From: a virus
UHGV virus genome: UHGV-0078064
DNA length: 14,337 bases
Reading direction: 5' to 3' (one strand)
Shown here: positions 1-14,337 of the stretch, piece after piece
Position numbering within the stretch: position 1 is the stretch's first letter
Layout: each line of letters opens with the position of its first letter
Position numbers and translations under genes: made by a program
Notes under the pieces: model-generated
Databases searched by the model: none
The model's input: only the letters and a program-made list of their open reading frames with translations
Told to the model about the DNA's origin: nothing

Positions 1-68
1 TACGCAGTGTGCGCCGGGTCGCTGTTACCGAGCGGCTGGTTATGTGTGAAAACTTCAGTAATTGCCAT
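1..68 (-). CDS. D: Head decoration protein gpD, N-terminal 22 codons only (gene runs off the window start)
   Basis: Reverse complement of 1-68 translates [22 protein letters not shown], matching the lambda gpD N-terminus ([22 protein letters not shown]) as I recall it. AAGAGG Shine-Dalgarno lies 6 nt upstream and overlaps the C stop. Confidence 0.75.
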   Translation of the reverse strand, partial: [22 protein letters not shown]

Positions 69-77
69 GATAGCCTC

Positions 78-683
78 TTAAACGGGGGTGTTTAACAAAT
101 CGTCAGCGGCATCAGAAGATGCGCTACCTGCTGGGAGTGCACCGGGTGCTGTTTCCATCAAACGATCCAGCGCCGTATCGGTACGCGCCTGGGCACTTTG
201 CGGTGCAGCAGCCAGAATGCGCTGTGCGCTCTCTACCGTCATACCCGGCGTTTCGGCCAGTGCTCGTGCCTGTGACTCACGCCCTTTAGCCTCATCGCAG
301 TTCAGGATGCCCATGATGCGGCTATTCTCTGCAGCTACTGCTGCAGTAACCTGCGCACTGACATCTACAGGGGCCGCTACGGAAGCAATGGTCGTGTCAA
401 CGGTAGTGACCTGTTCAGCTGAGGCAGTTGTCTGAGTTGCTGCCTGGTCAACTGGCTTAGTGGTCACAGCTGAAGCAGAAGGTGATGGCATAGTTCCTCC
501 AAGGGTTGTTTTTTTGCGTCTGTCGAGTGCTTCGCGCATCACGCCGAGCGCATCGGTATTGTTAACAAGTTCATCCGCCAGTCCGTTATCCAAAGACTCC
601 TGGCCGGAGAATACTGCCGCTTCGGTGTCCAGCACGTCCTGAACAGACATGCCGGTATAAGCGGAAACCTTTTCGGCAAACAT
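78..683 (-). CDS. nu3: Scaffolding protein Nu3, nested in-frame within the 3' third of C
   Basis: Internal ATG at 681-683 (MFAEKVSAYTGM...) gives a 606-nt in-frame ORF sharing the C stop. Lambda Nu3 is 606 nt and starts at the equivalent MFAQKV position (established knowledge). No strong SD is visible. Confidence 0.6.
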   Translation of the reverse strand: MFAEKVSAYTGMSVQDVLDTEAAVFSGQESLDNGLADELVNNTDALGVMREALDRRKKTTLGGTMPSPSASAVTTKPVDQAATQTTASAEQVTTVDTTIASVAAPVDVSAQVTAAVAAENSRIMGILNCDEAKGRESQARALAETPGMTVESAQRILAAAPQSAQARTDTALDRLMETAPGALPAGSASSDAADDLLNTPV

Positions 684-1421
684 CTGACGAGTGGCATCGA
701 TACGCGTCTGGAAATCAGCACGCACATCTTTCGGAAGCTTTTCGTAAGGGTTGCCGTCGACCTTGCGATCGCCGCTGTAAATCAGCGTGACCTCAACGCC
801 GTTAGTTTTGAGCGCAGCGCCATAGTTGCTGTGCGCCATCATGACCCCAATGGAGCCGGTTCTGGCCGTTTGTGTGACCAGCCGTCGCGATGCCGAACTG
901 GCTATAAGCTGCCCTGCACTGCAGTTCATGTCATTGGCCAGCGCCCAGATGGGTTTGATATCGCGCATACGGGCTATAATGTCGGCGCAGTCAAACGCCC
1001 CGGACACCATTCCACCCGGCGTATCCATATCCAGAAGAATGCCGTCAACGCCGGGGTCACTGATTGCCTGCTGCAGGCGAGCAATGATCCCGTTGTAACC
1101 CGTCATGCCGGAATAAGGCTGAAGCGCACGGGTTTTACTGACCAGCGTGCCGGAAACCGGCAAGACCGCGATACCATTTGCCACCTGATAGCTGCGTGAT
1201 GGACGGGGATCCATGTCATCATCCTCACCAAACAGCGCCAGCGGTTCGGCTATTTGTCCGGCATCAAGCGTGATGCCAGAGACGGTATCTGTCAGCCGGG
1301 TGATGCCCAACTGGCCAGCCAGCGCGCAAAAGAAAACCCGCGCATAGGCGGGTTCAAGCATCAGCGGCTCATTAAAGGCCATACTGGCAATATGCGGAAG
1401 ATTACGCAGCTCGTGCGCCAT
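78..1421 (-). CDS. C: Head maturation protease / minor capsid protein C (S49-family peptidase)
   Basis: 447-aa ORF, near-identical along its length to lambda gpC as recalled ([40 protein letters not shown]...DLLNTPV). Overlaps B by 20 nt exactly as in lambda. Confidence 0.93.
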   Translation of the reverse strand: MAHELRNLPHIASMAFNEPLMLEPAYARVFFCALAGQLGITRLTDTVSGITLDAGQIAEPLALFGEDDDMDPRPSRSYQVANGIAVLPVSGTLVSKTRALQPYSGMTGYNGIIARLQQAISDPGVDGILLDMDTPGGMVSGAFDCADIIARMRDIKPIWALANDMNCSAGQLIASSASRRLVTQTARTGSIGVMMAHSNYGAALKTNGVEVTLIYSGDRKVDGNPYEKLPKDVRADFQTRIDATRQMFAEKVSAYTGMSVQDVLDTEAAVFSGQESLDNGLADELVNNTDALGVMREALDRRKKTTLGGTMPSPSASAVTTKPVDQAATQTTASAEQVTTVDTTIASVAAPVDVSAQVTAAVAAENSRIMGILNCDEAKGRESQARALAETPGMTVESAQRILAAAPQSAQARTDTALDRLMETAPGALPAGSASSDAADDLLNTPV

Positions 1422-2994
1422 CTTGCTCCTCCTCGTTTGATTTTTTCACTCCGGCCTCAAAAGCTGCAGCGGCCCATGCCGGTGGTTTCAGACCCGCAGC
1501 ACGACGCTCTATGGTTTCCCGGACCTGCTGGGCAAAAATCTCCTGATAATCATCACCGCGTTTGGCGCACTCTTTTTCATACGTGCTGAGACCTGCCTCA
1601 ATGAGCATGACGGCCTCCTGTACCTCTTTCAGCCCGTCAATTGCCATTCGACCAGAGCCAATCCAGTTGGCATTCCCCCAGGCTGTTCTCGCCTCCTGGA
1701 AACTGAACCGGGCTTTCGAAGGAAGCGTGACCACGCGGCGGACAATCGCCTCTTCAAGCCAGCAAAGAAACATCTGACAGGCCTGTCGGGATGCCACAAA
1801 CTTGCGACGCCCCATAAAGTACGCCCAGGACTCGTTAGCACTTGCGCGTGCGGTCGAGTAGCTCATCTGCGAATAGTTTCGCGAAAGCTGCTCATACGAC
1901 ACACCAAGCCCAGCGGCAATATAACGCAGCAGGGACTGTTCAAAAGTCGAGTAGCCGTTATCGGTATCCTGCGCCGACTGAAGGTTGAGAGAATCACCCG
2001 GCAACAGGTGTGGAACCCTTGCCCCACCCAGGCGAACAGGCGCAGCTGAGTAATAGGACGCCATTTCACCGAGCCAGCCCGTAAGTTTGCTCTGCTGCTC
2101 TTTATTATCCGCGCCGAGAATAAAGTCCATCGCCGATTGGGTATCCAGTTCACTCTCGATGGTAGCGGCATACATAGCCTTCACTATCGCGCTCTGGAGC
2201 TGGGTATTTTGCAGGGTATCGAGCATTTTCATCTGCTCCATCACGCTGTAAAACGCATTGGCCCCACGGGTCTGTCCATCCTCCATCGGTTCGAATACAT
2301 GGATAAATGAAGGTCGACCGCCGGGTAGTTCGCGAGGAATGTAGGTCCAGTTCTGCGCCATCCAGCCGGGATAACCATCGTCGCTGACGTAATATCCCAG
2401 CGCAGCACCGCTATCATTTATTTTCACACCGGCGCGACAGTTCCGGGTATCACCGATATTATTCGGATTGCTGACGCGCTTCGGACTGACCATTTTGAAC
2501 TGAGTACGGAAAAGACGCGTTGAATCGCTGTCCCAGGTCGCCTGCGTGCATAATTCACCGTTAAACGCGTGCATGGCCACACCTTCTCGGATCATCATCG
2601 TAAACGTTCGCTTACGCTCGGCATCAATCCCGCAAAAGTCGTCCTCGGCATACTCATTCCATGCAGCTTCCACATCCCGCGAGAATGCCCGTGAATCCTC
2701 CTCATTTATTCCCAGATAACGCCAGCTTGGTCGATAACTGAGTCTGAAAAATGACCCGACGATGTGGTCCTGGTGGAGCTGCACGGCGTTTGCCGCGTAG
2801 CCATTATTTCGCACCAGATCGTCAGCGCGGGCATTTCCGCGAGAATAGTTGGGTAGGAGTGCGGCATCTGCACTTTCACTCGGCGGATTCCAGCCTCGCA
2901 GCTGCCCACCAAACCCGCCTCCACCGCCATGATATCCTGCGTATTCCCGAAGGGATGTTTTCCCGTCAGGTCCCACCAAAGATGGTATTTTCAT
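1402..2994 (-). CDS. B: Portal protein B
   Basis: 530-aa ORF near-identical to lambda gpB as recalled ([25 protein letters not shown]...). Start overlaps the W stop by 4 nt. Confidence 0.93.
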
Positions 2995-3197
2995 ACGTAA
3001 AACCCTGCTGGCCCCCGGCGTCGTGATGTGGTGCCAACCTGAGATTCAAGGTCAGCAATATATTTTTTGAGATCGCTGACTGAAGTGGCTGTAAATTCCA
3101 CTCTTCGACCGTCTTTCTGTACCGTCGCCACGCGCTTTCCCATCATCAGGTCATGTAACGCAGCGCGCGCGGCATCCAGTTCAGTCTGTGTTGCCAT
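2991..3197 (-). CDS. W: Head-tail joining / head completion protein W
   Basis: 68 aa ([51 protein letters not shown]...[10 protein letters not shown]), matching lambda gpW as recalled. Sits between A and B as in lambda. Confidence 0.9.
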
Positions 3198-5119
3198 TAT
3201 TCATCTCCAGATAATGCCCGCGCGTAATCCGCCAGGGTCTTGTTATTGTTACGGCTGCCTTCTTCCTCCAGCAGGCTGGCCAGAAGTGAATCAAGATTTA
3301 GCTGCCAGCGGGATATGCTTATACGCAGCGCCGCCAGTGCATAAACAAAGCAATCGAGCGCCTCATTTCGTCGTTTTTTGCTGTCCCAGACGATCTTTTT
3401 CTTTCCGTCTACCCATTTTTCCACCTGCTCTTCAGCTGTTAGTTGTTGGGCCTCTGTTAGATCGTAGATTTCTGGGTTATTCGGGAAATGAACCGCTCCC
3501 GCCAGCGGCTCGTCTCTTTGCGCCACCAGCGTGAAACGGTTATAAATCTGCTCTTTTGCGGTGTCTGTTCCTACCTCTGTGAGGTAAACACCATTCTTGT
3601 TACGCTTGCGTGGCATGTTCGCCACTGGCTTTCCATAAACCGACGCCCCCTTTATAGGGATCACACGAAACAGACCGTGTTTTTTTGAGCGGTTGTAGAC
3701 GATGGTGGGATCAATGCCGCCAATATCCCAGCAAGTGCGGGATATAACCATTTCGAGACCGTTCTGGCGCTTATACGTCCTGTTGATCGCTTCATCAACT
3801 CGAGCGAGAGTCGACTCATCATCATGACGACCCATAATGATAATTTTGTCGATAAGCCAGCTTTCCTCTCCCGGCCCCCATCCCCAAACACGCATTTCGT
3901 AACGGTCAAGCTGGGAGTCAATACCCGCTGTCAGATATGCCACTCGCTCCGGCACAGACGCTTCAAAGTGCTCTTTTCGTTCCGCTAAAACTTCAGCATC
4001 GGGTCGTTCACCTATTTTCGGTTCCCACGTTTCGCCCAGGGTCGTGTTAACGAAAGTTTTTCGCTTACCCGTATCACCTTTTGTTTTTATCCAGTCCTTG
4101 ACGATCTGCACCCAGGTTGTGAACGGGCTATATGCGGTCCAGATGTGGAATGTAACGCTGTCAGGAGGTTCAATTTCGGTACCGGATGAAGAAAACCAGT
4201 TAAGGCCGTCTCGTGTCCAGATACCTGTTTCATCACAAATATACCTGGCCTCCAGAAATTCCAGCTCCTGTTGTTTAATCACACAGGCATTGTGTTCACA
4301 GAGGTAGTAAACGCTGGCAGGTTCTCCCGGAGACCATTTGAAGCCAAATGGTGTCTCTTTATCACCGAATTTCAGATACTGCTCTTCCCCACAGTGTGGG
4401 CATGGAACATGGAACCGAAGAAAATGTTCAGACTCCTTAGCAGCTCTTTCTATCTGGCACGTACCTTTGACTTTCGGTGTAGATCCGCGAATGGATTTCG
4501 GCCATACAGAACCCTCAATACGCTTATCACCCAGAAAGGTGGGAGAACCTTCTTTCTCGATGTCATCATCGAAAGCGGCGAGCTCGTCGTAGCCAGCCAC
4601 ATCAACTGATTTTTCACGGTAGTTTTTTGCAGCCTTACCGCCCAGGCACCAGAAACCACGACCATTCGAGAAACGCTTCATGCTCAGCGTATTGTCCCGG
4701 TGTTTTTTACCGTACCAGGGAGCAAGCGCCAGCAACGTCGGAATATCACGAATGGTCGGTTCTACATGAGACTTCATGAAGTTTTCAGCATCACCGTCGG
4801 TTGGTAACCATATTAGGGAGTTACGCTGTTTATGTTGGATGAAATATGCGTAAACGCCGAGCAACATTTTTGAGTAGCCGACACGAGCCGATTTAACGAC
4901 ATTCACCTCGCGAATATAGTCATTACCCATCGCATTCATAATTGCACGCTGAAATGGCAGTGTTTCCCAGCGCCCTTCCTGGTAGGCAGACTCTTTCGGG
5001 AGATAATAATTCTCATCTGCCCATTCAACTGCTGTTTGCGGTTGCGGCCGGTACAGCGAACGTAACCCCGCCCGCGCAGAGTGCTGCAGCCCCTTAACCT
5101 GACTGTTCGATATATTCAC
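3197..5119 (-). CDS. A: Terminase large subunit A
   Basis: 640-aa ORF near-identical to lambda gpA as recalled (lambda is 641 aa). Its start lies 26 nt inside the 3' end of Nu1, as in lambda. Confidence 0.95.
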
Positions 5120-5639
5120 TCAGCAACCCCGGTATCATTTCATCCAGCGCAGCTGCCTTGTTCATGGCCTTAATGATGTCCTTCTTGAGGAAATCAATAT
5201 GTCGGTTCTCCAGCTCCGGGAAGCGCCGCTGAACCGACAGAGGTATTCCATCGAGAATGCTGGCGATTTCTCCGGCTACCCGCGACAGCACGAACGTGCA
5301 GAATGCGGTCTCCACCACTTCAGCGGACTCTTTTGCATTTTTTAATTCCTGAGCGTCAGCCTGAGCTCGCGTAAGTCGGTGTCGCTCATATTCAATCGTG
5401 CCAGGTTGAAGATCGGACTCAGAAGCGATACGGAGATCTTCAACTTCCTTCCGCAACTTTTCATTTTCTATAGCTGCATCGCGCGCACTGTACCATTCGA
5501 TTGCAGCAGCAGATTCAAAGAGAACCTCATTACCTTTGCCACCACCGCGGACAACCGGCATACCTTGCTCCTGCCAGTTCTGAATCGTTCGGACGCTTAC
5601 CCCGAAAATTTCGGATAAGCGTTTTTTGTTAACCTCCAT
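5094..5639 (-). CDS. nu1: Terminase small subunit Nu1
   Basis: 181 aa, MEVNKK...IQNWQEQGMPV...GGGKGNEV... through ...[10 protein letters not shown], near-identical to lambda gpNu1 as recalled. Immediately downstream of the cosB R sites. Confidence 0.95.
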   Translation of the reverse strand: MEVNKKRLSEIFGVSVRTIQNWQEQGMPVVRGGGKGNEVLFESAAAIEWYSARDAAIENEKLRKEVEDLRIASESDLQPGTIEYERHRLTRAQADAQELKNAKESAEVVETAFCTFVLSRVAGEIASILDGIPLSVQRRFPELENRHIDFLKKDIIKAMNKAAALDEMIPGLLSEYIEQSG

Positions 5640-5835
5640 GGCTTACTCCTGGCAAAAAACAGAGAAAGGAAACAATCAACGGTAAACTTCCGTTTTCCTT
5701 GCTCAGCATTTCCTTTCTGGAGAGAGGACGTTTTTAACAAAAACAATGAGTAAACAAGAAGAAGAACGGAAATGGCATAAACCAGAAAATTTTCATAAAT
5801 AGCGAGAATCTGCGCGGACGCCGCCCCGTAACAAG
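5640..5835. other. cos: cos site: cosB (R1, I1, R2, R3 terminase-binding repeats) and cosN nicking region
   Basis: Reverse complement reads ...GTTACG GGGCGGCGTCCG CGCAGATTCTCGCTATTTATGAAAATTTTCTGGTTTATGCCATTTCCGTTCTTC...GTTTCCTTTCTC...ATG(Nu1), matching the lambda cos layout. R-like elements: gagaaaggaaac (about 5662-5673), tttcctttct in opposite orientation (about 5709-5718), gaagaacggaaatgg (about 5761-5775). Predicted 12-nt cohesive end is GGGCGGCGTCCG (+ strand about 5815-5826); lambda has GGGCGGCGACCT. Confidence 0.85.
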
Positions 5836-5884
5836 GCGGATCGCCGGAAAGGACCCGCAAACGATAATAATTATCAATTGCACA

Positions 5885-6349
5885 CTATCGACGGCACTGC
5901 TGCCAGATAACACCACCGGGGAAACATTCCATCATGATGGCCGTGCGGACATAGGAAGCCAGTTCATCCATCGCTTTCTTGTCTGCTGCCATTTGCTTTG
6001 TGACATCCAGCGCCGCACATTCAGCAGCGTTTTTCAGCGCGTTTTCGATCAACGTTTCAATGTTGGTATCAACACCAGGTTTAACTTTGAACTTATCGGC
6101 ACTGACGGTTACCTTGTTCTGCGCTGGCTCATCACGCTGGATACCAAGGCTGATGTTGTAGATATTGGTCACCGGCTGAGGTGTTTCGATTGCCGCTGCG
6201 TGGATAGCACCATTTGCGATAGCGGCGTCCTTGATGAATGACACTCCATTGCGAATAAGTTCGAAGGAGACGGTGTCACGAATGCGCTGGTCCAGCTCGT
6301 CGATTGCCTTTTGTGCAGCAGAGGTATCAATCTCAACGCCAAGCGTCAT
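5885..6349 (-). CDS. Hypothetical protein, cos-proximal late-strand accessory gene
   Basis: 154-aa ORF (MTLGVEIDTSAAQKAIDELDQRIRDTVSFELIRNG...) with ATG start, 12 nt downstream of the preceding gene's stop, ending 55-60 nt before cosN. No family recognised from memory. Occupies the position of lambda's post-bor ORFs but does not resemble them by size or order. Confidence 0.6.
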   Translation of the reverse strand: MTLGVEIDTSAAQKAIDELDQRIRDTVSFELIRNGVSFIKDAAIANGAIHAAAIETPQPVTNIYNISLGIQRDEPAQNKVTVSADKFKVKPGVDTNIETLIENALKNAAECAALDVTKQMAADKKAMDELASYVRTAIMMECFPGGVIWQQCRR

Positions 6350-6361
6350 CGAAGCGCAATA

Positions 6362-6613
6362 TTACTGCTCACCAAAACGCGTATTGACCAGGTGTTCAAC
6401 GGCAAATTTCTGCCCTTCTGATGTCAGAAAGGTAAAGTGATTTTCTTTCTGGTATTCAGTTGCTGTGTGTCTGGTTTCAGCAAAACCAAGCTCGCGCAAT
6501 TCGGCTGTGCCAGATTTAGAAGGCAGATCACCAGACAGCAACGCGCCACGGAAAAACAGCGCATAAAGCACTTCATTAGCAGCGCCAGATAGCGTAATGA
6601 TTTTGTTACTCAT
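6362..6613 (-). CDS. Hypothetical small protein, cos-proximal late-strand accessory gene
   Basis: 83 aa from the ATG at 6611-6613 (MSNKIITLSGAANEVLYALFFRGALLSGDL...), with AAGGAAA SD about 6 nt upstream. The ORF track's 96-aa version starts at a TTG at 6652 with no SD. No family recognised. Confidence 0.6.
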   Translation of the reverse strand: MSNKIITLSGAANEVLYALFFRGALLSGDLPSKSGTAELRELGFAETRHTATEYQKENHFTFLTSEGQKFAVEHLVNTRFGEQ

Positions 6614-6632
6614 GGAATATTTCCTTTTAGGC

Positions 6633-6686
6633 GTGAGCCTGTCGCACGGCAAAGCCGCCGAAAGTTAACGGTTTGCCCAGGCTCAC
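6633..6686. repeat. Perfect 9-bp inverted repeat GTGAGCCTG / CAGGCTCAC with a 36-bp spacer that contains a nested GGCAAA/TTTGCC pair
   Basis: Read directly: arms at 6633-6641 and 6678-6686, nested complementary hexamers at 6648-6653 and 6672-6677, GTTAAC palindrome in the centre. Lies 20-73 nt upstream of the 83-aa gene start. Confidence 0.7.
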
Positions 6687-6878: not shown

Positions 6879-7139
6879 ATGTCAGAAGGTTTTGGTTTAA
6901 AAGAAAAGGTTGAGCAGTTAGAAAAAGAATTAGCCGTACAAAAAATAGCAAATCAGCTTGCTTTTGGAGCACTAATTAAAGCAGTTAATGAGCTGTACCC
7001 GAACAAAGATTTATATGATGGGTTGACAAAATTTGTCCAGGAAAAACTTGATCCTGAACGTGTTAAAAACATCCCTAATCTTCACGAGGCCTTTCTAGAA
7101 GCTGCGAAAATACTGAGGACTGACGCATCTCCTGAATAA
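6879..7139 (+). CDS. Hypothetical protein encoded on the opposite strand, AT-rich (moron-like)
   Basis: 86-aa ORF (MSEGFGLKEKVEQLEKELAVQKIANQLAFGALIKAVNELYPNKDLYDGL...), with AAGGA SD 7 nt upstream of the ATG. Conspicuously AT-rich relative to flanking phage genes. It is the only convincing + strand gene in the window and sits where lambda has bor (also opposite strand), but the product is not Bor-like and has no lipoprotein signal. Confidence 0.6.
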   Translation: MSEGFGLKEKVEQLEKELAVQKIANQLAFGALIKAVNELYPNKDLYDGLTKFVQEKLDPERVKNIPNLHEAFLEAAKILRTDASPE

Positions 7140-7331: not shown

Positions 7332-7373
7332 ATATCCATTATCAAGCCCACCAGCAGGTGAGCTTTGGAATGG

Positions 7374-7631
7374 TTACTTCGCTTTTGCTTCCGCTCGCTT
7401 ACGCCGGCGCTCTTCTTTCCTCTCGGCTTTTGCCATGTCCATGAATGCCTGCATGATCGAGTTCCGCATCATGTAGCTGACAAAGTGATGGTTGACACAG
7501 CCGTTGAGGCGCAGCTGCTCGCCAAACTCATCCACCGAGGCCAATGCTTCCATCATGCCCTTCTCGCCTTTCATGAACTCTGAGAAGTCGCGCCCCGCTC
7601 TGGAGGCGCATTCTATTATTCGGGTGCTCAT
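7374..7631 (-). CDS. Hypothetical small protein with a lysine/arginine-rich C-terminal tail, coupled to the upstream KilA-N gene
   Basis: 85 aa from the ATG at 7629-7631 (MSTRIIECASRAGRDFSEFMKGEKGMMEALASVDEFGEQL...AKAERKEERRRKRAEAKAK). Its start is 2 nt after the KilA-N gene stop (TGAtcATG). The ORF track's 105-aa version overlaps the upstream gene. Confidence 0.55.
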   Translation of the reverse strand: MSTRIIECASRAGRDFSEFMKGEKGMMEALASVDEFGEQLRLNGCVNHHFVSYMMRNSIMQAFMDMAKAERKEERRRKRAEAKAK

Positions 7632-7633
7632 GA

Positions 7634-8362
7634 TCAGGCCGCCGCATAGAGCAATTTCATCTGCCCTTTCACCGGGAATGCCGACATGCAACGCGCTTCG
7701 AAATCACGATAATCAGAGCACCCATTGGCAATGCTGGTAACGGCAATGATCTGTCGCTCAACCAATGTCAGCGCGTCAGGTTTAAGGTGCTGATGGATTT
7801 TGTCTCCCGCAGCCAGCCGTCTTTTAACCTCTGCATATACTTCTGGTGGTAATACCGGGCCATATACCCACTTGGCACTGATCATCCCAAATAGTGCGGG
7901 GCGACGACCTGGTCGATGACGGGGCAGCCCTGACATTTTGAACATCGCAGAATAAAACGGATCGCTAAACCTCTTTTCCCATGGCTGAGATTTATCCAGA
8001 AGGAAAATAGCCTTTATTCTTTCATCGTCGATATGATGAACGGAACCCTGAATGATTGCGTCAATTTGCTCATCACACCAGATCTCAAAATCTACAGAAA
8101 GCCATCGAGCAAATCTGACCGCCAGTTTTGGGTGAAGCCATGTTCCGCCGCCACGGTCTTTGCGAGCGCGGCTGGTTTTTACATATGTGATATTCCCATA
8201 TCTACTCTTTAACGCCTCGATGTAACGGACAGTCTCAGGAAGCCTAAGCCACTGAGCCGGCTCCTTGTTGAACTTGTCAGCTGCCGCAGTCGCGTCAAAC
8301 CAGCCATCGTCAGAAAAACGCATGGGATGGCCTTCGAAATCAATCGGGATGATATTGGACAT
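7634..8362 (-). CDS. KilA-N domain protein (N-terminal KilA-N/APSES-type DNA-binding domain; C-terminal half unassigned)
   Basis: 243 aa from the ATG at 8360-8362 (MSNIIPIDFEGHPMRFSDDGWFDATAAADKFNKEPAQWLRLPETVRYIEAL...GGGTWLHPKLAVRFARWLSVDFEIW), a pattern typical of KilA-N domains. AAGG SD about 9 nt upstream. The ORF track's 267-aa version begins at a GTG with no SD. Confidence 0.7.
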   Translation of the reverse strand: MSNIIPIDFEGHPMRFSDDGWFDATAAADKFNKEPAQWLRLPETVRYIEALKSRYGNITYVKTSRARKDRGGGTWLHPKLAVRFARWLSVDFEIWCDEQIDAIIQGSVHHIDDERIKAIFLLDKSQPWEKRFSDPFYSAMFKMSGLPRHRPGRRPALFGMISAKWVYGPVLPPEVYAEVKRRLAAGDKIHQHLKPDALTLVERQIIAVTSIANGCSDYRDFEARCMSAFPVKGQMKLLYAAA

Positions 8363-8512
8363 CGTATTTACCTTTTTGGTGATATGAGCCAGTTCTCGCA
8401 GACATGGACAGCCCAAGAGCGGCACGATGTAAGCCACCGTCCTGTCTCTGTCTCATATCCCGAAAAGCTCTTGGTTGATATGCGCACGAGAATGCGCGTT
8501 TACTGCGGACAT

Positions 8513-8535
8513 AAAAAAGCCCCGCATCGCGAGGC
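8513..8535 (-). terminator. Candidate rho-independent terminator downstream of Rz
   Basis: Minus-strand RNA: GCCUCGC-GAU-GCGGGGC (7-bp stem with one G.U pair) followed by UUUUUU. Lies about 35 nt past the Rz stop. Confidence 0.6.
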
Positions 8536-8568
8536 TCATTAAATGGACTTTGTGATTTGCAAAAAAAA

Positions 8569-9006
8569 TTATTTCAGGCACTGAGTCCTGATGTACTCCT
8601 GCAGGTAGTTAACCTGCGCGGTTATCCTGTCGATTCCACTTCGGAGACGGTAATAATTGAGTTCAGCATCTGCTGTAAGTCTTGGGCTTTCTCCATCGCC
8701 CATGCCGCTGGCTCCGGTCGTTGACTTTGCACAGGTGGCGGCGACTTGCAGGCGCTTACGCCCAGCAGAAACATCAGCACGGAGACTTTCGATAGTCGCG
8801 TTAGCATCAGCAAGCTCCTTTGTATATCTGGCATCGAGTTCTGCTACATCACGTTGACGCTTCTGCATGTCAGCAATAGTGGATGCGGCTTTGTCGCGCT
8901 GTTCTTTGTAGGCGATTGCATTATCACGGTAATGATTAACAGCCCATGACAGGCAGACGATGATGCAGATAACCAGAGCGGAGATAATCGCGGTGACTCT
9001 GCTCAT
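8569..9006 (-). CDS. Rz: Spanin, inner-membrane subunit (i-spanin) Rz
   Basis: 145 aa; the N-terminus [31 protein letters not shown] matches lambda Rz as recalled. Start overlaps the R stop (ATGA). Confidence 0.92.
8622..8807 (-). CDS. Rz1: Spanin, outer-membrane lipoprotein subunit (o-spanin) Rz1, embedded in the +1 frame of Rz
   Basis: 61 aa from the ATG at 8805-8807: [20 protein letters not shown] (signal peptide with VSAC lipobox) followed by a proline-rich segment [13 protein letters not shown]. Entirely embedded in Rz, the lambda architecture. Confidence 0.8.
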
Positions 9007-9479
9007 ACCTCAATCTCTCTGACCGTTCCGCCTGCCTCTTTGAATTTTGCAATCAGGCTGTCAGCCTTATGCTCGAACTGACCATAACCAGCGCCCGGCA
9101 GTGAGGCCCAGATATTGCTGCAACGGTCGATTGCCTGACGAATATCACCGCGGTCAATCATCGGTAAAGCGCCACGCTCTTTAATCTGTTGCAATGCCAC
9201 AGCGTCCTGGCTTTTCGGAGAGAAGTCTTTCAGGCCAAGCTGCTTACGGTAGGCATCCCACCAACGGGAAAGAAGCTGGTAACGTCCGGCGGCTGTTGAT
9301 TTGAGTTTGGGGTTTAGCGTGACAAGTTTGCGAGGGTGATCGGAGTAATCAGTGAATAGCTCTCCGCCTACAATGACGTCATAACCATGATTTCTGGTTT
9401 TCTGACGTCCGTTATCAGTTCCCTCTGACCATGCCAGCATATCGAGGAACGCCTTACGTTGATTATTGATTCCCACCAT
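9003..9479 (-). CDS. R: Endolysin R (lytic transglycosylase)
   Basis: 158 aa, essentially identical to lambda R as recalled ([53 protein letters not shown]...). Overlaps S by 17 nt as in lambda. Confidence 0.95.
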
Positions 9480-9786
9480 CTTCTACTCCGGCTTTTTTAG
9501 CAGCGAAGCGTTTGATAAGCGAACCAATCGAGTCAGTACCGATGTAGCCGATGAACACGCTCGTTATATAAGCGAGATTGCTACTTAGTCCGGCGAAGCC
9601 GAGAAGGTCACGAATGAACCAGGCGATAATGGCGCACATCGTTGCGTCGATTACTGTTTTTGTAAACGCACCGCCATTATATCTGCCGCGAAGGTACGCC
9701 ATTGCAAACGCAAGGATTGCCCCGATGCCTTGTTCCTTTGCCGCGAGAATGGCGGCTAACAGGTCATGTTTTTCTGGCATCTTCAT
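9463..9786 (-). CDS. S: Holin S (class I, with the Met1-Lys2-Met3 dual-start holin/antiholin motif)
   Basis: 107 aa, [62 protein letters not shown]..., near-identical to lambda S107/S105 as recalled. Confidence 0.95.
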
Positions 9787-9904
9787 GTCTTACCCCCAAT
9801 AAGGGGATTTGCTCTATTTAATTAGGAATAAGGTCGATTACTGATAGAACAAATCCAGGCTACTGTGTTTAGTAATCAGATTTGTTCGTGACCGATATGC
9901 ACGG

Positions 9905-9942
9905 GCAAAACGGCAGGAGGTTGTTAGCGCAACCTCATGCCA
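9905..9942 (-). terminator. Stem-loop in the Q-S interval, possibly a second intrinsic terminator or structured leader element
   Basis: Minus-strand RNA: GGCAUGAGGUUG-CGCUAA-CAACCUCCUGCC (12-bp stem, one mismatch) followed by GUUUUGCC. About 120 nt upstream of the S start. From memory the same element occurs upstream of lambda S. Confidence 0.45.
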
Positions 9943-10077
9943 CCCGCTTTCACGAAGCCAGCCATTGCGCTGGTTTTCTTTTATGCAAAGCACACCGCAC
10001 CGTAGCCACAGCGGATAAGGTGATTATTTTTGTCTGTCTGGTATTTGGTTTGATGTGCTTTCAGAAAGGTCGTGATT

Positions 10078-10112
10078 AAAACGCAAAAGCCCCGAGCTAT
10101 TAACTCAGGGCT
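10078..10112 (-). terminator. Promoter-proximal hairpin plus U-tract about 30-60 nt downstream of the pR' start; candidate tR' analogue ending a short 6S-like leader RNA
   Basis: Minus-strand RNA: AGCCCUGAG-UUAAUAG-CUCGGGGCU (9-bp stem with one G.U) followed by UUUGCGUUUU. The + strand version is also followed by a U-rich tail (UUUAUUU), so it may act bidirectionally. Confidence 0.5.
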
Positions 10113-10140
10113 TTATTTAACGAGTGCATTTATCCATCGT

Positions 10141-10176
10141 TGGGTCAAATTTACCCAACTTTATTCAAAAAGTCAA
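10141..10176 (-). promoter_or_regulatory. pR': Late promoter pR' with the overlapping Q-binding/qut region
   Basis: Reverse complement reads TTGACT-(17 nt)-TAAATT followed by TGACCCAACGATGG, matching the lambda pR' -35, -10 and initial transcribed sequence as recalled. Sits immediately downstream of the Q stop. Confidence 0.8.
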
Positions 10177-10218
10177 TATCATGCCGTAAAGATGTTGCCA
10201 TCCGTGGCAATCATGCTG

Positions 10219-10842
10219 CTAACGTGTGACTGCGTTCAAAATGTTGCCTGCGATTGACTCTTCCTTGTGGCATTGCACCACCAGAGCGTCATACAGCGGC
10301 TTAACAGTGCGTGACCAGGTGGGTTGGGTAAGGTTTGGGATTAGCATCGTCACAGCGCGATATGCTGCGCTTGCAGGCATCCTTGAATAACCGACGCCTT
10401 TACATCTTCCGCACTCTTTCTCAACAACTCTCCCCCACTGCTCTGTTTTTGCTATATCAACTGCCCGACCTGTTCCGTGGCAATCTCTGCATCTTGCGCC
10501 CGGCGTCGCAGCACTACGGCAATAATCCGCATAAGCGAATGTTGCGAGCACTTGCAGTACCTTTGCCTTAGTATTTCCTTCGAGCTTTGCCACACCACGG
10601 TATTTCCCCGATACCTTGTGTGCAAATTGCATCAGATAGTTGATAGCCTTTTGTTTGTCGTTCTGGCTGAGTTCATGCTTACCGCAGAATGCAGCCATTC
10701 CGAATCCGGCTTGTGATTGCGCCATCCCCATAGCAGCCATAACATCAGTACCGGAAAGAGAGTCAGAAGCCGTAGCCCGTGGTGAGTCGCTCATCATCGG
10801 GCTTTTTGGCGAATGAAATTTAGCTACGCTTTCGAGTCTCAT
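10219..10842 (-). CDS. Q: Late-gene antiterminator Q
   Basis: 207 aa, essentially identical to lambda Q as recalled (MRLESVAKFHSPKSPMMSDSPRATASDSL...CRDCHGTGRAVD...ECGRCKGVGY...). Start overlaps the ninH stop. Confidence 0.95.
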   Translation of the reverse strand: MRLESVAKFHSPKSPMMSDSPRATASDSLSGTDVMAAMGMAQSQAGFGMAAFCGKHELSQNDKQKAINYLMQFAHKVSGKYRGVAKLEGNTKAKVLQVLATFAYADYCRSAATPGARCRDCHGTGRAVDIAKTEQWGRVVEKECGRCKGVGYSRMPASAAYRAVTMLIPNLTQPTWSRTVKPLYDALVVQCHKEESIAGNILNAVTR

Positions 10843-11027
10843 CGTCTTCCCCTCTTGCCCTGTTTGACCATCAGGACGCCGTTAACTATTACATGACGCT
10901 CGCCTTTGCTGTCTCGGTTGTACTTGAGCACTGTTCCTCTTGCGCAGGAAAGCATCCTCGCCACTTCGGTCTGATTGCCTCGTGTCTGGATAAGAAGCTC
11001 TGGTATCGTTTGAATTGTGGCGTTCAT
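10839..11027 (-). CDS. ninH: NinH-like small protein
   Basis: 62 aa (MNATIQTIPELLIQTRGNQTEVARMLSCARGTVLKYNRDSKGERHVIVNGVLMV...) resembling lambda NinH as recalled (...TIPDMLVEAYGNQTEVARRLKCSRGTVRKY...). Immediately upstream of Q. Confidence 0.75.
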   Translation of the reverse strand: MNATIQTIPELLIQTRGNQTEVARMLSCARGTVLKYNRDSKGERHVIVNGVLMVKQGKRGRR

Positions 11028-11386
11028 ACGCTCTCCAGTTCGGTGATTTTTATTCCAAGCCTTCCGCCTGGTACTTTCACGCCACGAATTACGCGAATGT
11101 CATCGAATTGCTCGTCGTCTTCCGCAAATCCGGCGTGGATAAGAGAGTCGAGTAAACCTTTCAGGATGTTATCGAGGTCGCGGCGGCGGGAGTCTGGAAC
11201 GTCTGCGATGACTTTGATGCGGAGTCGTGATTTGGTGAAAATGTCTAACTTGAGTTGGCGGATTATTTGCTGTACATCTTTTCGGTATTTCTGGCCTTTA
11301 TCGCTGATGTAGTATTGGCTTCCCCTTCTTCGCCAGTAGGTATTCAGTGACGGTGGGTACGGAAGCACAAACTGATATTCGTTCAT
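11024..11386 (-). CDS. rusA: Holliday junction resolvase RusA
   Basis: 120 aa with family-typical motifs (LPxPPSxNxYxR, PDxRRRDLDN, GGRL). Occupies the slot held by NinG/Rap in lambda. Confidence 0.85.
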   Translation of the reverse strand: MNEYQFVLPYPPSLNTYWRRRGSQYYISDKGQKYRKDVQQIIRQLKLDIFTKSRLRIKVIADVPDSRRRDLDNILKGLLDSLIHAGFAEDDEQFDDIRVIRGVKVPGGRLGIKITELESV

Positions 11387-11673
11387 GACTTAATCTTCCC
11401 CTCCCTCAGCAGTATCGCCTGCGTTCTGATCACGCCTTCGAGGTGGTAAAGTCTGGCGTCTTTGTTGTCGAGATTATGGGTGCGTCGGTCGATTTCATCG
11501 TGACACGCACTACAAGCCCATGCGCCGATCAGGTCGTCAGGCTTCATTCCCGTTCCGCAAATTCCAGCCATCCGGTAATGTGCCAGAACTGTAGTTTCAG
11601 GGTTGCCATTGCATACGCCGTAAATACGTACCTGGCATTCTCTGCCGCGTGCTTCTTTGCGTAGGTTAGCCAT
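11383..11673 (-). CDS. ybcO: YbcO-family (DUF1364) cysteine-rich protein, putative nuclease
   Basis: 96 aa with conserved Cys/His pattern (C..C, H, CSACH). Lies immediately upstream of rusA, the same order as ybcO-rusA in the DLP12 prophage (from memory). Confidence 0.65.
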   Translation of the reverse strand: MANLRKEARGRECQVRIYGVCNGNPETTVLAHYRMAGICGTGMKPDDLIGAWACSACHDEIDRRTHNLDNKDARLYHLEGVIRTQAILLREGKIKS

Positions 11674-12395
11674 TAAGCAGCCTCCCCGGTTACTTTCAGC
11701 ATTCCGTTATCGAGCAGCTTTCTGGTCAGCCACTGTTGACCACGCCCGGTGATTTTTGTGGTGAACGATATCTGTATTCCGTGATTTGTGTTGACCGCTG
11801 TTTCTTTCACTGTGAAATAGCCGCGATCCATATATTCCTGCATTGGCACATTTCGCCGGGAACCTGAAGCAATAAGGATTTTGTGATCGCGCATCCACGC
11901 AAACAGTTTGTTTGGACCAATTCCAACAACCTTTGCAAAGTTTCCAATCAAAATTCCACTGGCCTCGCCAACGCGATCGGCAAACTCAACTTTAGGTGCG
12001 GCAATTGCGAGCTGGTTTTCCAGCTGCATTTTCTGCTCAGCAAGGTCAGCAGCAAGGCGCAACGCTTCCGGTAGCGTTTTGGGGATATTAACCGCAGCTT
12101 CTTCAAGCTCTCGCCAGCGGTCAACAAGACGAGCGGTGAACTCTGGCGACAACTGGGCAACAACGACAATACTGTCTCGCTTACCTTGTTCGCCCTCGAA
12201 GACGTAATGCTCGTACTGAACATTGAACCCTAAGTTATTGATTCTTTCGGAAACCTCAATTTGAGGAAGCCGGATAACACCATTTTTAGCCAGCGTTTCG
12301 ATGGTACGTTTCACATTGTCATGACGCTTACCCACCAACTCAGCGATTTCAATGCTTGTCATTTTGATGGCATTGCCATTTATTAACTCACTCAT
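11673..12395 (-). CDS. Rha-family N-terminal plus ANT/KilA-C C-terminal domain protein (Roi-like antirepressor-type DNA-binding protein)
   Basis: 240 aa. N-terminus ELINGNAIKMTSIEIAELVGKRHDNVKRTIE resembles the phage Rha regulatory domain; the C-terminal segment ...ADRVGEASGILIGNFAKVVGIGPNKLFAWMRDHKILIASGSRRNVPMQEYMDRGYF resembles the antirepressor (ANT) C-terminal domain. Assignment from memory of domain signatures. Confidence 0.55.
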   Translation of the reverse strand: MSELINGNAIKMTSIEIAELVGKRHDNVKRTIETLAKNGVIRLPQIEVSERINNLGFNVQYEHYVFEGEQGKRDSIVVVAQLSPEFTARLVDRWRELEEAAVNIPKTLPEALRLAADLAEQKMQLENQLAIAAPKVEFADRVGEASGILIGNFAKVVGIGPNKLFAWMRDHKILIASGSRRNVPMQEYMDRGYFTVKETAVNTNHGIQISFTTKITGRGQQWLTRKLLDNGMLKVTGEAA

Positions 12396-12564
12396 CGTCT
12401 TCTTCCTCGTACATTGAGCTATTCGGATCGCTCATCAGTTCTGCACAGCAGTGCTCACACACGTGAACTTCCAGCACATGCAGCTTCTGACCGCAGTTAG
12501 CGCACGTTAAAGCCCGCTCGACGCTTTCTTTCTGGTATTGAAGGGATTGGGATGGGCTAAGCAT
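12388..12564 (-). CDS. ninF: NinF-like small cysteine-rich protein (not in the ORF track because under 60 aa)
   Basis: Hand translation of the reverse complement of 12388-12564 gives 58 aa: MLSPSQSLQYQKESVERALTCANCGQKLHVLEVHVCEHCCAELMSDPNSSMYEEEDDE. CxxC...CxxCC suggests a zinc ribbon. Its stop overlaps the downstream start (GTGA/ATG). Resembles lambda NinF as recalled. Confidence 0.7.
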   Translation of the reverse strand: MLSPSQSLQYQKESVERALTCANCGQKLHVLEVHVCEHCCAELMSDPNSSMYEEEDDE

Positions 12565-12940
12565 TATTGGCGTCCTGCATCATGAGAAAGACAATCATGG
12601 CGGCACGGAGTGGATTGTCATATGCGACACCAACATTCGGTCCGGCATCATCAAACAAGTCCCTTGCGTTGTCTGTAGCGCACGGCATTGAGGGATTGTC
12701 TAAAATTATGCTGATGTTGTTTTCAGTGATAATCGGCCATGCGTCTGCTGGGTTTGCGCATGGGTTAAAGGATCCGCGCTCAACCTCTACTTCAACTGCG
12801 TCTCCGTTTACAATGTCTCCCTCAAATGAGATAAACACCATCGCGCCATTCTCACCTTCTTTGTAATCCGGTGATCCGTTATGAATGGCTTCGAATACCG
12901 CCACGTTAATTTCAAAATCACTTAACTGTGAATAATCCAT
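12557..12940 (-). CDS. Acidic hypothetical protein, NinX-like by position (between ninE and ninF, as in P22)
   Basis: 127 aa from the ATG at 12938-12940 (MDYSQLSDFEINVAVFEAIHNGSPDYKEGENGAMVFISFEGD...), with GAGGAA SD about 5 nt upstream. The NinX call is by synteny only. Confidence 0.5.
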   Translation of the reverse strand: MDYSQLSDFEINVAVFEAIHNGSPDYKEGENGAMVFISFEGDIVNGDAVEVEVERGSFNPCANPADAWPIITENNISIILDNPSMPCATDNARDLFDDAGPNVGVAYDNPLRAAMIVFLMMQDANNA

Positions 12941-12942
12941 TG

Positions 12943-13119
12943 TCACTTCCTCGCACGATGTCTTAGCCACCGGATATCCCACAGGTGAGCCGTGTAGTTG
13001 AAGGTTTTTACGTCAGATTCTTTTGGGATTGGCTTGCGTTTATTTCTGGAGCGTTTCGTTGGAAGGTATTTGCAGTTTTCGCAGATGATGTCGGTGATAC
13101 TTCGTCGCTGTCGCCTCAT
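12943..13119 (-). CDS. ninE: NinE
   Basis: 58 aa from the ATG at 13117-13119: [58 protein letters not shown], matching lambda NinE as recalled. Start overlaps the ninB stop. Confidence 0.85.
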
Positions 13120-13526
13120 TCGTACCTCCTGTCGGTAAATCTGACACCCTGACCAATAGCCCACGCTGTTGTGTACTCAATCAGACTTGCCATACGCTTC
13201 ACACTCATCTGCGCGCTACTTTCGCGAATGTTGACGTATTCGCCTTCAAGCCCGGGCAAAACATCAGCTTCCTGTTTTGTTGCCACTGCATGACCGCTGA
13301 TCAACAAAACCTTCCATTGTTCCGGTTTTAACCATTTGCCGCACCATTGAACCTGACGTGCGATATCCGCCAGCATCGCGTGAAATTTTGCGTTCTGGTC
13401 AAGGTTGCGCTTGTAGTCAGTAATGCGGATGGTAACTGGCTTGTCTTTATCGAGTGGTGTTGCGAGGATGGCATTTATTGCAGCTTGCTGTTGTTGCTTA
13501 CTCCTGAGGAAAATTGTCTGTTTCAT
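13116..13526 (-). CDS. ninB: NinB-family protein (recombination-associated, ssDNA-binding)
   Basis: 136 aa. The motif [33 protein letters not shown] parallels lambda NinB (RSLDQNRKLWACLGDVSRQVEWHGRWLDAESWK) as recalled. GAGGAA SD present. Confidence 0.7.
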
Positions 13527-13534
13527 GGAATTCC

Positions 13535-13747
13535 TCAGTATGCGTAAAGGCTGTATCCGTTTTTATTTGGCCTGGTGCCATAGCCATATAGGCTCCAGCC
13601 ATCCTGTTTTCTCTCACCAAAAATATGCTTGCGGTATTCTTCCTGCTGGCGTCTCCATATTTCCATCATGTCTGGCTGGTTCTTTTCTCGCATTTTTCGG
13701 ATCTGCTCAAGGATGAACTCTATTTGCTGCTGATTTGTCATACTCAC
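13535..13747 (-). CDS. Hypothetical small protein (GTG start)
   Basis: 70-aa ORF (MSMTNQQQIEFILEQIRKMREKNQPDMMEIW...). The GTG start overlaps the upstream stop (GTGA); an alternative ATG lies 2 codons in. No family recognised. Confidence 0.45.
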   Translation of the reverse strand: MSMTNQQQIEFILEQIRKMREKNQPDMMEIWRRQQEEYRKHIFGERKQDGWSLYGYGTRPNKNGYSLYAY

Positions 13748-14052
13748 TCCTTCACTTTGATTCCAGCGGCGCGGATAGCCTCTACATCGCTTTCGTATTG
13801 CGATTCTGCACCTGAGTCATAGCCAATGTGATAATCACCGGGAAGTGGGCCTTTCTTTGGCTTTTGCAGCTCAATCTCGATAGCTGCTCGCGATGCCTGC
13901 CATAAAGTCCACCACTCATTTAAGGAGTGACGAATATCAATGCTTGAAAATGCGAAGTACCTATCACCATTTCTTGCCTCGGTTATCATCTCTAATGGTA
14001 ATTTCAATTTTTTGGCAACGTATTCCTCAAACTTCTTTCTTGATTCGTCCAT
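13744..14052 (-). CDS. Hypothetical protein
   Basis: 102-aa ORF (MDESRKKFEEYVAKKLKLPLEMITEARNGDRYFAFSSIDIRHSLNEWW...), ATG start with GAGGGT SD. No family recognised. Confidence 0.55.
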   Translation of the reverse strand: MDESRKKFEEYVAKKLKLPLEMITEARNGDRYFAFSSIDIRHSLNEWWTLWQASRAAIEIELQKPKKGPLPGDYHIGYDSGAESQYESDVEAIRAAGIKVKE

Positions 14053-14069
14053 CGATACTTACCCTCAGT

Positions 14070-14276
14070 TCAACTCACAAAACGCCACGCTATTTTTGCT
14101 ACAGCGACAGGCATAACACCGATAATCACCCACAGGAAAATGCTACCGAAAAGCACACCCACCAGGTCTTTACCTTCGCCTACCAACCGGACAAAACAGC
14201 CAGCAACCACAATGAACGTCGCCACCATCCACAGAGCACCGAGAAGCCTCAATGCAGAGAAAATCAACTCAACCAC
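14070..14276 (-). CDS. Small hydrophobic protein, probably membrane-associated (GTG start)
   Basis: 68 aa (MVELIFSALRLLGALWMVATFIVVAGCFVRLVGEGKDLVGVLFGSIFLWVIIGVMPVAVAKIAWRFVS). Two long hydrophobic stretches suggest two transmembrane helices. GTG start with GGGGGAGAG SD 6 nt upstream. Confidence 0.5.
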   Translation of the reverse strand: MVELIFSALRLLGALWMVATFIVVAGCFVRLVGEGKDLVGVLFGSIFLWVIIGVMPVAVAKIAWRFVS

Positions 14277-14290
14277 GATTTACTCTCCCC

Positions 14291-14323
14291 CAAATAAAAA
14301 GGCCTGCGATTACCAGCAGGCCT
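14291..14323 (-). terminator. Rho-independent terminator (minus strand), tR2-like by position at the entry to the nin region
   Basis: Perfect 8-bp stem AGGCCUGC / GCAGGCCU with an 8-nt loop, followed on the minus-strand RNA by UUUUUAUUUG. Lies immediately upstream of the first nin-region gene. Confidence 0.7.
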
Positions 14324-14337
14324 GTTATTAGCTCAGT

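Follow-up and report, generated by a model that had tools for sequence, protein, structure and literature searches.

An HK022/HK97/HK620-type nin region in a lambda-like virus genome: evidence for a cassette mosaic and for selection on a dyad-symmetric element within roi

The window examined here, that is, the whole 14,337-nt stretch of the virus genome UHGV-0078064, carries nine genes of a lambdoid nin region on its minus strand (13526-10219), and the sequence points to a lambda-like E. coli phage or prophage as the element that hosts them. Read in the direction of the genes, the block begins with ninB (13526-13116), which encodes a 136-aa protein of the Orf family of recombination mediators in its HK620-type allele (Pfam NinB, 1.1e-55), followed by ninE (13119-12943, 58 aa; Pfam NinE, 7e-44), ninX (12940-12557, 127 aa; DUF2591, Pfam Phage_P22_NinX, 1.4e-16) and ninF (12564-12388, 58 aa; Pfam NinF, 1.8e-12). 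The fifth gene, roi (12395-11673), encodes a 240-aa Rha/ANT protein (ANT, 7.7e-33; Phage_pRha, 6.3e-09). It is followed by ybcO (11673-11383, 96 aa; DUF1364, Pfam YbcO, 2.9e-44), which codes for a putative His-Me finger nuclease, by rusA (11386-11024, 120 aa; Pfam RusA, 2.4e-16), the product of which is a predicted Holliday junction resolvase, by ninH (11027-10839, 62 aa; Pfam Phage_NinH, 2e-24) and by Q (10842-10219, 207 aa; Pfam Antiterm, 3e-57), a lambda-type late-gene antiterminator. All nine products scored above the gathering threshold of their respective Pfam families, and the PHROG assignments agreed. The order and place given to these genes by an initial annotation made from the sequence alone are thus confirmed, as is its assignment of the 240-aa and 127-aa proteins to the Rha/ANT and NinX families rather than to unrelated ones; NinX is acidic, as had been noted (22 Asp and Glu vs 4 Lys and Arg residues, pI 4.05).

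From ninB to Q, seven of the eight gene junctions overlap, by 4 (ATGA), 8, 8 (ATGAGTGA), 1 (TAATG), 4, 4 and 4 nt, in agreement with the earlier statement that most junctions overlap by 1 to 8 nt; the exception is ninE and ninX, which are separated by a 2-nt gap. Such start/stop overlaps fit translational coupling within one transcript. At the upstream end of the region, a tR2-like intrinsic terminator (14300-14323, minus strand), made of a hairpin and a T-run, overlaps a partial ninA homologue. The terminator lies in a 55-nt stretch (14283-14337) that shares 100% identity with the ren-ninB spacer of lambda and can be aligned both with tR2 as annotated in HK620 and with the terminator annotated at this point in P22; P22 NinA is 94% identical at 14337-14284. 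At the other end, a promoter scan revealed the late promoter pR' (TTGACT-17-TAAATT, 10176-10148, minus strand) and a terminator scan revealed tR' (10114-10086, minus strand), the qut region lying within 10086-10176; the HK620 record places its pR' and qut collinearly with this stretch. Because it is flanked by a tR2-like terminator upstream and by pR'/tR' downstream, the block corresponds to the distal part of a rightward delayed-early operon.

If transcription and translational coupling follow the lambda pattern, the minus strand would be transcribed from the tR2-like terminator (near 14300-14323) through to Q, the late regulator. The biochemical functions of all products are predictions from homology. 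NinB would act as an Orf-type recombination mediator, RusA would resolve Holliday junctions from the slot held by the unrelated NinG/Rap in lambda and P22, and YbcO would be a His-Me finger nuclease travelling with RusA. Roi and NinH would bind DNA; NinE, NinX and NinF are small proteins. Finally, Q would modify RNA polymerase at qut/pR', leading to readthrough of tR' into the lysis and head genes.

Comparison with phage records yielded 436 matches to the block, the best of which (Kapi1, HK620, HK633, mEpX1, HK97 and HK022) were collinear with it at 94-97% nucleotide identity. A single alignment to HK620 spanned 10079-12530 of the window (96.9%), and single alignments to HK022 (94.8%) and HK97 (94.1%) spanned 9700-12530. 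GenBank gives the order of the comparators as ninB, ninE, ninF, roi, HkbD/gp66, rus/gp67, ninH/gp68 and Q, then pR'. The window has the order ninE, ninF, roi, gp66 (ybcO), rusA, ninH and Q with overlapping junctions that distinguishes the HK022/HK97/HK620 type, and its block likewise lies between tR2 and pR'/lysis genes (holin, endolysin and Rz downstream), the replication genes falling beyond the window. An identical nine-gene order, including ninX, was found in a prophage of E. coli strain 980-2 (NZ_CP127324.1), where a single piece with 96.5% identity accounts for 98% of the query. Among 5426 complete E. coli genomes, 2436 contained at least a partial match to the block and 88 contained at least 80% of it in one place, and the arrangement is widespread among E. 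coli prophages.

HK620 (AF335538) and Kapi1 (MT813197) share with the window the order from ninB to Q and pR', with HkbD/ybcO and rus in the same places and ninX also present in Kapi1, at 96.6-96.7% nucleotide identity (NinB 97-99%, Roi 99%, RusA 98%, NinH 100% and Q 99-100% at the protein level). Both are P22-like podoviruses, whereas the window has lambda-type head genes. HK620 lacks ninX, the Kapi1 ninX is a different allele (39% identical), and Kapi1 carries two tRNA genes between Q and S, whereas ARAGORN found no tRNA in the window. HK97 (AF069529) and HK022 (AF069308) share the order of ninE, ninF, roi, gp66, gp67 (RusA), gp68 (NinH) and Q, with 100% identity for RusA and NinH, 99% for Q and 96-97% for YbcO. 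In contrast, their NinB is of the lambda type (40%), they have no ninX, and their Roi proteins, 87-88% identical overall (88% for HK022, 87% for HK97), contain another variable cassette, reflected in about 63% nucleotide identity at 12200-12300.

Homology to lambda was confined to three stretches, 10119-10852 (pR' and Q, 95% identical), 12393-12530 (ninF) and 12947-13130 (ninE). The breakpoints therefore lie at gene junctions, to within a few nt: 12947 and 13130 are at the ninE stop and start, 12393 is where ninF stops and roi starts, and 10852 is 10 nt upstream of the start of Q. This agrees with the modular exchange within a lambda-like late-control region that had been proposed, and the region is best described from its sequence as a mosaic of independently exchangeable cassettes bounded at gene junctions. 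These cassettes are an HK620-type ninB, a JEP4/HK446-type ninX, a P22/JEP4-type ninE and ninF, an HK620-type roi, an HK97/HK022-type ybcO-rusA-ninH and a lambda-type Q with pR'. NinB is 99% identical to that of HK620 and 40% to those of lambda, P22 and HK97; NinE is 98% identical to those of P22 and HK620 and 95% to that of lambda; NinX is 100% identical to that of the E. coli 980-2 prophage, 98% to that of JEP4 and 45% to that of P22, and is absent from HK620, HK97, HK022 and lambda; NinF, like NinE, is 98-100% identical to its P22 and JEP4 counterparts, and it shares 88% with lambda NinF. YbcO is 95-99% identical to its counterparts in HK-type phages, NinH shares 56% with lambda NinH, and Q shares 99.0% with lambda Q over 207 aa, which bears out the description of the gene as essentially lambda Q.

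The window RusA (PF05866, 60.9 bits vs a cutoff of 22.8) aligned without gaps over residues 1-117 to E. coli RusA (PDB 1Q8R, E 6.5e-26). Residues D70, D72 and D91 are the essential catalytic aspartates of the E. coli enzyme, and all three are conserved at the same positions, suggesting that the product is a Holliday junction resolvase. YbcO (PF07102, 149.4 bits vs a cutoff of 29.9) aligned without gaps to PDB 3G27 (E 4.8e-40), and its residues C13, C21, H32, C54, C57 and H58 are identical to those of 3G27. DUF1364/YbcO has been described as a His-Me finger nuclease family that usually neighbours RusA, Q and an antirepressor-type gene, although nuclease activity is a prediction even for its founding members (PMC5714182). 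Q (PF03589) is of the lambda type, with its cognate pR'/qut/tR' just downstream.

The Rha/ANT protein carries its N-terminal Rha domain (Phage_pRha) at residues 12-99 (36.7 bits, cutoff 29.9) and its C-terminal ANT/KilAC domain at residues 126-228 (113.5 bits, cutoff 25.3), and belongs to phrog_63 (2.7e-99). It is 99% identical to the Roi proteins of HK620 and Kapi1, its match to HK022 Roi extends over 100% of its length, and it has the same neighbours, ninF and a resolvase gene upstream of Q. The designation Roi-like named the right family and understated the relationship, as the protein is Roi itself. Outside a sharply bounded variable cassette at residues 22-64 (12204-12332 of the window), Roi alleles are almost invariant. 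At least three cassette types occur among close relatives (HK620/window, the E. coli 980-2 hybrid and HK022/HK97/JEP4), and many more were seen in viral contigs. A single-sequence AlphaFold2 model of Roi was too poor for use (mean pLDDT 41.5, pTM 0.28), and sequence and profile searches of PDB chains with Roi and its N-terminal domain returned nothing or only spurious matches to designed repeat proteins.

Within this cassette we found a dyad-symmetric element, TCCGGCTTCCTCAA-A-TTGAGGTTTCCGAA, at 12246-12274, centred on 12260 (roi nt 136) and containing a perfect inner palindrome at 12254-12266. Three nucleotides downstream lies a consensus site for integration host factor (IHF), AATCAATAACTTA (12231-12243, minus strand; roi nt 153-165), so that both sites together span roi nt 122-165. 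The IHF match at 12243-12231 is the only perfect match to WATCAANNNNTTR in the window. The consensus occurs at the same offset in HK620, Kapi1, E. coli 980-2, JEP4, HK022 and HK97, and also in P22 rha, and alleles of the other roi family have AAACAANNNNTTR in the same register. The palindromes themselves differ among alleles while sharing a centre 17 nt upstream of the IHF consensus. In HK022 roi, the counterparts of the dyad and the adjoining site are CTGCA-T-TGCAG and AATCAATGATTTA, the former being also the dyad of HK97, and some roi alleles carry perfect palindromes of 23-29 bp. We also observed a 27-nt island (12228-12254), comprising the dyad's outer right arm and the IHF consensus, that is 96% identical to P22 rha (5825-5851 of the P22 locus) in genes that are otherwise distantly related; P22 rha is located in the late region, unlike roi, and has only this kind of short segment, including the IHF consensus, in common with it.

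Roi alleles were sampled independently of similarity ranking by means of a degenerate pattern derived from the conserved downstream block, which gave 116 usable loci and 42 distinct variants. Covariation was then assessed on a MAFFT alignment of 28 distinct roi alleles, with a 14-pair dyad placed around one column. Complementary bases occupied 81.1% of the dyad cells, compared to 63.2% in shuffles (0 of 500 reached 81.1%) and to at most 52.8% in the slide control. The covariation score was 0.448, vs 0.164 in shuffles and at most 0.185 in the slide control. Twelve of the 14 pairs changed on both sides, and one of the pairs was A-T in 14 alleles and C-G in the other 14, with none unpaired. Furthermore, more distant homologues (43-60% identity), which come from phages of Hamiltonella, Psychrobacter, Vibrio, Pseudomonas and Klebsiella, carry the dyad at the corresponding codon, with 9-10 of 12 pairs complementary (shuffle fraction at most 0.027).

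Two-thirds of the dyad pairs join a third to a second codon position. At synonymous dyad sites, 209 of 268 were complementary, compared to 94 expected from codon usage (z = 15.7), and slid controls stayed near expectation except at +1 (z = 6.8), an excess attributed to A/T runs in the dyad arms. The same test rules out that the dyad is a by-product of a peptide motif. Together with the conserved position of the IHF consensus, these results indicate that the dyad, with the IHF site that follows it, is under selection as DNA, and that the dyad is kept partly through synonymous sites in the coding sequence. We propose that the dyad is probably the operator of Roi itself, with IHF as cofactor. This reading fits the IHF-dependent phenotype of Rha-family genes, which block phage growth in IHF-deficient hosts (PMC4936722), and the implication of HK022 Roi in lytic growth (PMC3430580). 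Searches of the available literature revealed no description of family-wide dyad covariation, and none of a Roi binding site in its open-access part. Clerget and Boccard reportedly found in 1996 that the binding of HK022 Roi takes place inside the roi gene, next to an IHF site; the HK022 Roi binding site itself was probably reported at that time.

We are highly confident that, taken as a whole, 13526-10219 (minus strand) is an HK022/HK97/HK620-type nin (ninR) region assembled as a cassette mosaic and containing a roi dyad under DNA-level selection, and the identity, order, family and frame checks of the window brought no evidence that contradicts the nin-region identification. Several limits apply. 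The 14.3-kb window is not matched over 80% or more of its length at a single place in any phage record or complete E. coli genome, so that the exact phage is a new combination of known modules. The binding of Roi to the dyad is predicted from sequence. Taken alone, the IHF consensus is not significant in the window (0.64 matches expected, at least one match in 98 of 200 shuffles), and it gains weight only because its position is conserved across alleles. The 6+1+6 palindrome of the window itself is unremarkable, as ten such palindromes occur in the window compared to 3.7 (sd 2.1) in mononucleotide shuffles. Because alleles were treated as independent, the dyad statistics overstate significance; the slide controls, in which relatedness is kept, agree with the signal in direction. 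Finally, the half-site tracks a motif at Roi residues 23-33, KRHDNVKRTIE occurring with CCTCAA, SRHDKVKQSIE with CCCCCA and SRPDSVKRTIE with CCACAG, and this correlation is not independent evidence since tight linkage could explain it. A search for other copies of CCTCAAATTGAGG with up to three mismatches gave 5 matches in the window vs 4.5 expected, hence no further Roi site. Two other 6+1+6 palindromes lie inside roi, with centres near 11810 and 12372.

The dyad could alternatively form an RNA hairpin in the early transcript, acting on stability, RNase III processing or translation, instead of serving as a protein-binding DNA site. Compensatory changes that keep complementarity up to a 1-nt centre are typical of RNA structure, and some alleles could form stems of 11-14 bp. 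However, a 1-nt centre cannot loop without opening the innermost pairs, and in HK022 and in the window perfect pairing is restricted to 5-6 inner pairs. Moreover, the sense strand shows no wobble signature, as G-T/T-G combinations account for 13 of the non-Watson-Crick cells vs 26 for A-C/C-A, no Rfam family reached its gathering threshold anywhere in the window, and the IHF consensus at a fixed distance points to a complex formed on DNA. We therefore consider an RNA hairpin unlikely, if the most serious of the competing explanations.

Less probable still is the framing of the initial annotation, namely a P22/DLP12-type mosaic in which one block made of a Roi-like protein, YbcO and RusA replaced NinG and NinI in a lambda backbone. 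Several resemblances speak for it: NinE, NinF and Q are 88-99% identical to their lambda counterparts and 97-98% to those of P22, NinX is present as in P22, and ybcO and rusA are adjacent as in DLP12. With lambda (NC_001416, 40644-44509), the block shares its position between the replication genes/tR2 and Q and the conserved pR' and tR'. On the other hand, lambda has NinC, NinD, NinG (Rap) and NinI and is devoid of NinX, Roi, YbcO and RusA. The absence of ninC, ninD, ninG and ninI from the window, also part of the initial annotation, was confirmed by tblastn of the lambda proteins against all six frames (best E values of 0.77, 0.11, 0.75 and 2.2, respectively). Antisense open reading frames (ORFs) of 91-139 aa inside the region had no Pfam match, and hidden genes, whether resembling NinC, NinD, NinG or NinI or of another kind, were accordingly rejected.

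P22 (NC_002371) resembles the block in ninE, ninF (both 98%) and gene 23 (Q, 97%), in the presence of ninX between ninE and ninF, and in the conserved ninA/tR2 segment. Yet only ninE, ninX, ninF, ninH and gene 23 of its nin genes have counterparts in the window. Its nin region lacks roi, ybcO and rusA and contains ninD, ninG, ninY and ninZ, which gave chance-level matches (NinD, E 0.065; NinG, E 0.70; NinZ, E 0.068) or none (NinY) when compared to the window. In DLP12/phage 82 (ybcN, ninE, ybcO, rusA, ylcG, quuD), ybcO and rusA are likewise adjacent and upstream of a Q gene, and the RusA catalytic residues and YbcO metal ligands of DLP12 are conserved in the window. However, DLP12 has no roi, ninF, ninX or ninH, its YbcO, RusA and NinE are only 70%, 43% and 50% identical, and its Orf homologue YbcN, its YlcG and its Q type (QuuD) are absent from the window (no match at E of 1 or below). 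Because these P22 and DLP12 proteins have no counterpart, the label is imprecise, and the framing is largely refuted by the collinear 94-97% matches of HK620, HK97 and HK022. The synteny comparison thus sustained modular exchange and put HK620, Kapi1, HK97 and HK022, which share the order, in the place of P22 and DLP12.

Nor was there a single replacement event, as the relatives of the block show. To survey gene content, we used 80 IMG/VR loci carrying the window's own Roi allele, retrieved in an alignment-based scan of viral contigs. Most of them have ninF, roi, ybcO, rusA and ninH, while seven have roi followed by a lambda-type NinG. Either a lambda-type or an HK620-type NinB was present, the presence of NinC, of NinD and of two types of NinX varied, Q was sometimes of another type, and the exact order of the window occurred in five or six loci. 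Furthermore, JEP4 carries roi, ybcO, a RusA and ninH together with a NinI-type phosphatase. Since roi also precedes NinG, it is a separate insertion, and since JEP4 carries both NinI and RusA, NinI is independent of RusA; in the window NinI is missing and its place is closed by the ATGA overlap between ninH and Q. Of the proposed replacement of NinG and NinI, what stands is that ybcO-rusA is the alternative to NinG in the resolvase slot. This is consistent with the finding that orf is invariably followed downstream by one of two alternative resolvase genes, rap or rusA (PMC4118853).

We also doubt, slightly more strongly, that the Rha/ANT protein works as an antirepressor in the manner of P22 or P1 Ant, inactivating a CI-type repressor through protein contact, rather than as a site-specific DNA-binding regulator. 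Such a role is suggested by the strong match of its C-terminal region to ANT/KilAC (7.7e-33) and by the name 'anti-repressor Ant' of its PHROG and RefSeq families. These names are family-level annotations and not experimental ones, whereas HK022 Roi, to which the protein is 88% identical from end to end, is described in GenBank and in the literature as binding DNA and affecting lytic growth. In addition, the gene lies in a delayed-early operon, which is transcribed only once repression has been lifted, and the conserved dyad and IHF site within it suggest DNA binding. A cruciform-forming recombination signal, for instance a RusA or YbcO substrate promoting cassette exchange at roi, is very improbable as an explanation of the dyad, since roi with the same dyad also adjoins NinG instead of RusA and many alleles, including that of the window, have only short perfect arms, even though perfect 25-29-bp palindromes can extrude, the arms carry symmetric CC dinucleotides and the element sits in the most mosaic part of roi beside resolvase genes.

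Returning to the dyad as a predicted Roi operator, we tentatively suggest, as an idea that may well prove wrong, that Roi/Rha genes are self-contained specificity cassettes in which the variable DNA-binding part (residues 22-64) also carries the cognate operator (codons 41-50), followed by the IHF site. The two half-sites would then co-evolve by compensatory changes, tracking the putative recognition motif at residues 23-33. A Roi-IHF complex formed in the early operon, upstream of ybcO, rusA, ninH and Q, could be an autoregulatory roadblock through which Q expression, and with it the timing of lysis, is tuned. If true, this model would explain why Rha/Roi harms phage growth only when IHF is missing. 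The dyad and IHF site provide a concrete, allele-resolved cis-element through which this old and mechanistically unexplained growth block in IHF-deficient hosts can be approached, and they would show clearly how selection on synonymous sites preserves regulatory DNA inside a coding sequence.

The nine-gene arrangement has been annotated in HK97, HK022 and HK620 since about 2000, that is, for about 25 years, and its mosaic character is known and common. Lambdoid modular evolution is routinely illustrated by alternative resolvase cassettes (rap vs rusA) and by the shuffling of nin genes, and the present mosaic adds nothing new to this. The practical value of the nin-block result is a correct annotation, and specialist interest, if any, would lie with the roi dyad and its IHF site alone.

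Between the tR2-like terminator and ninB, on the minus strand, three small ORFs at 13535-14276 also belong to the nin region and were absent from the initial list of genes. They encode products of 68 aa (14276-14070, phrog_1165), 102 aa (14052-13744, phrog_343) and 70 aa (13747-13535, phrog_18758), and none of the three matched a Pfam family. None of the nine comparator loci has the 70-aa ORF, not even the E. coli 980-2 prophage, which is otherwise collinear.

Elsewhere in the window, the head genes (1-5639) are 99.9-100% identical to those of mEp237 and Phi06_2987, and the part from 7337 to 14337 is about 96% identical to mEpX1 and HK022. On the minus strand at 5885-6652, a TAA stop (6364-6362) divides one frame into two adjacent ORFs of 96 and 154 aa, which correspond to the N- and C-terminal portions of a single PHROG, phrog_17079 (242 positions); this looks like either a gene broken by a nonsense codon or a gene that is naturally split. 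Rz (9006-8569) contains, in a different frame, an ORF (8622-8834, minus strand) with a lipoprotein-like signal (…LLGVSAC…), which looks like an Rz1 o-spanin gene nested in the way known from lambda and P22. A 267-aa KilA-N domain protein (phrog_1136), about 99% identical to those of mEpX2, HK446 and mEp235, is encoded between Rz and the cos/Nu1 end (7634-8437, minus strand). Small ORFs lie near this gene in an AT-rich stretch (GC 0.40), including one on the plus strand at 6879-7139 (phrog_21164).

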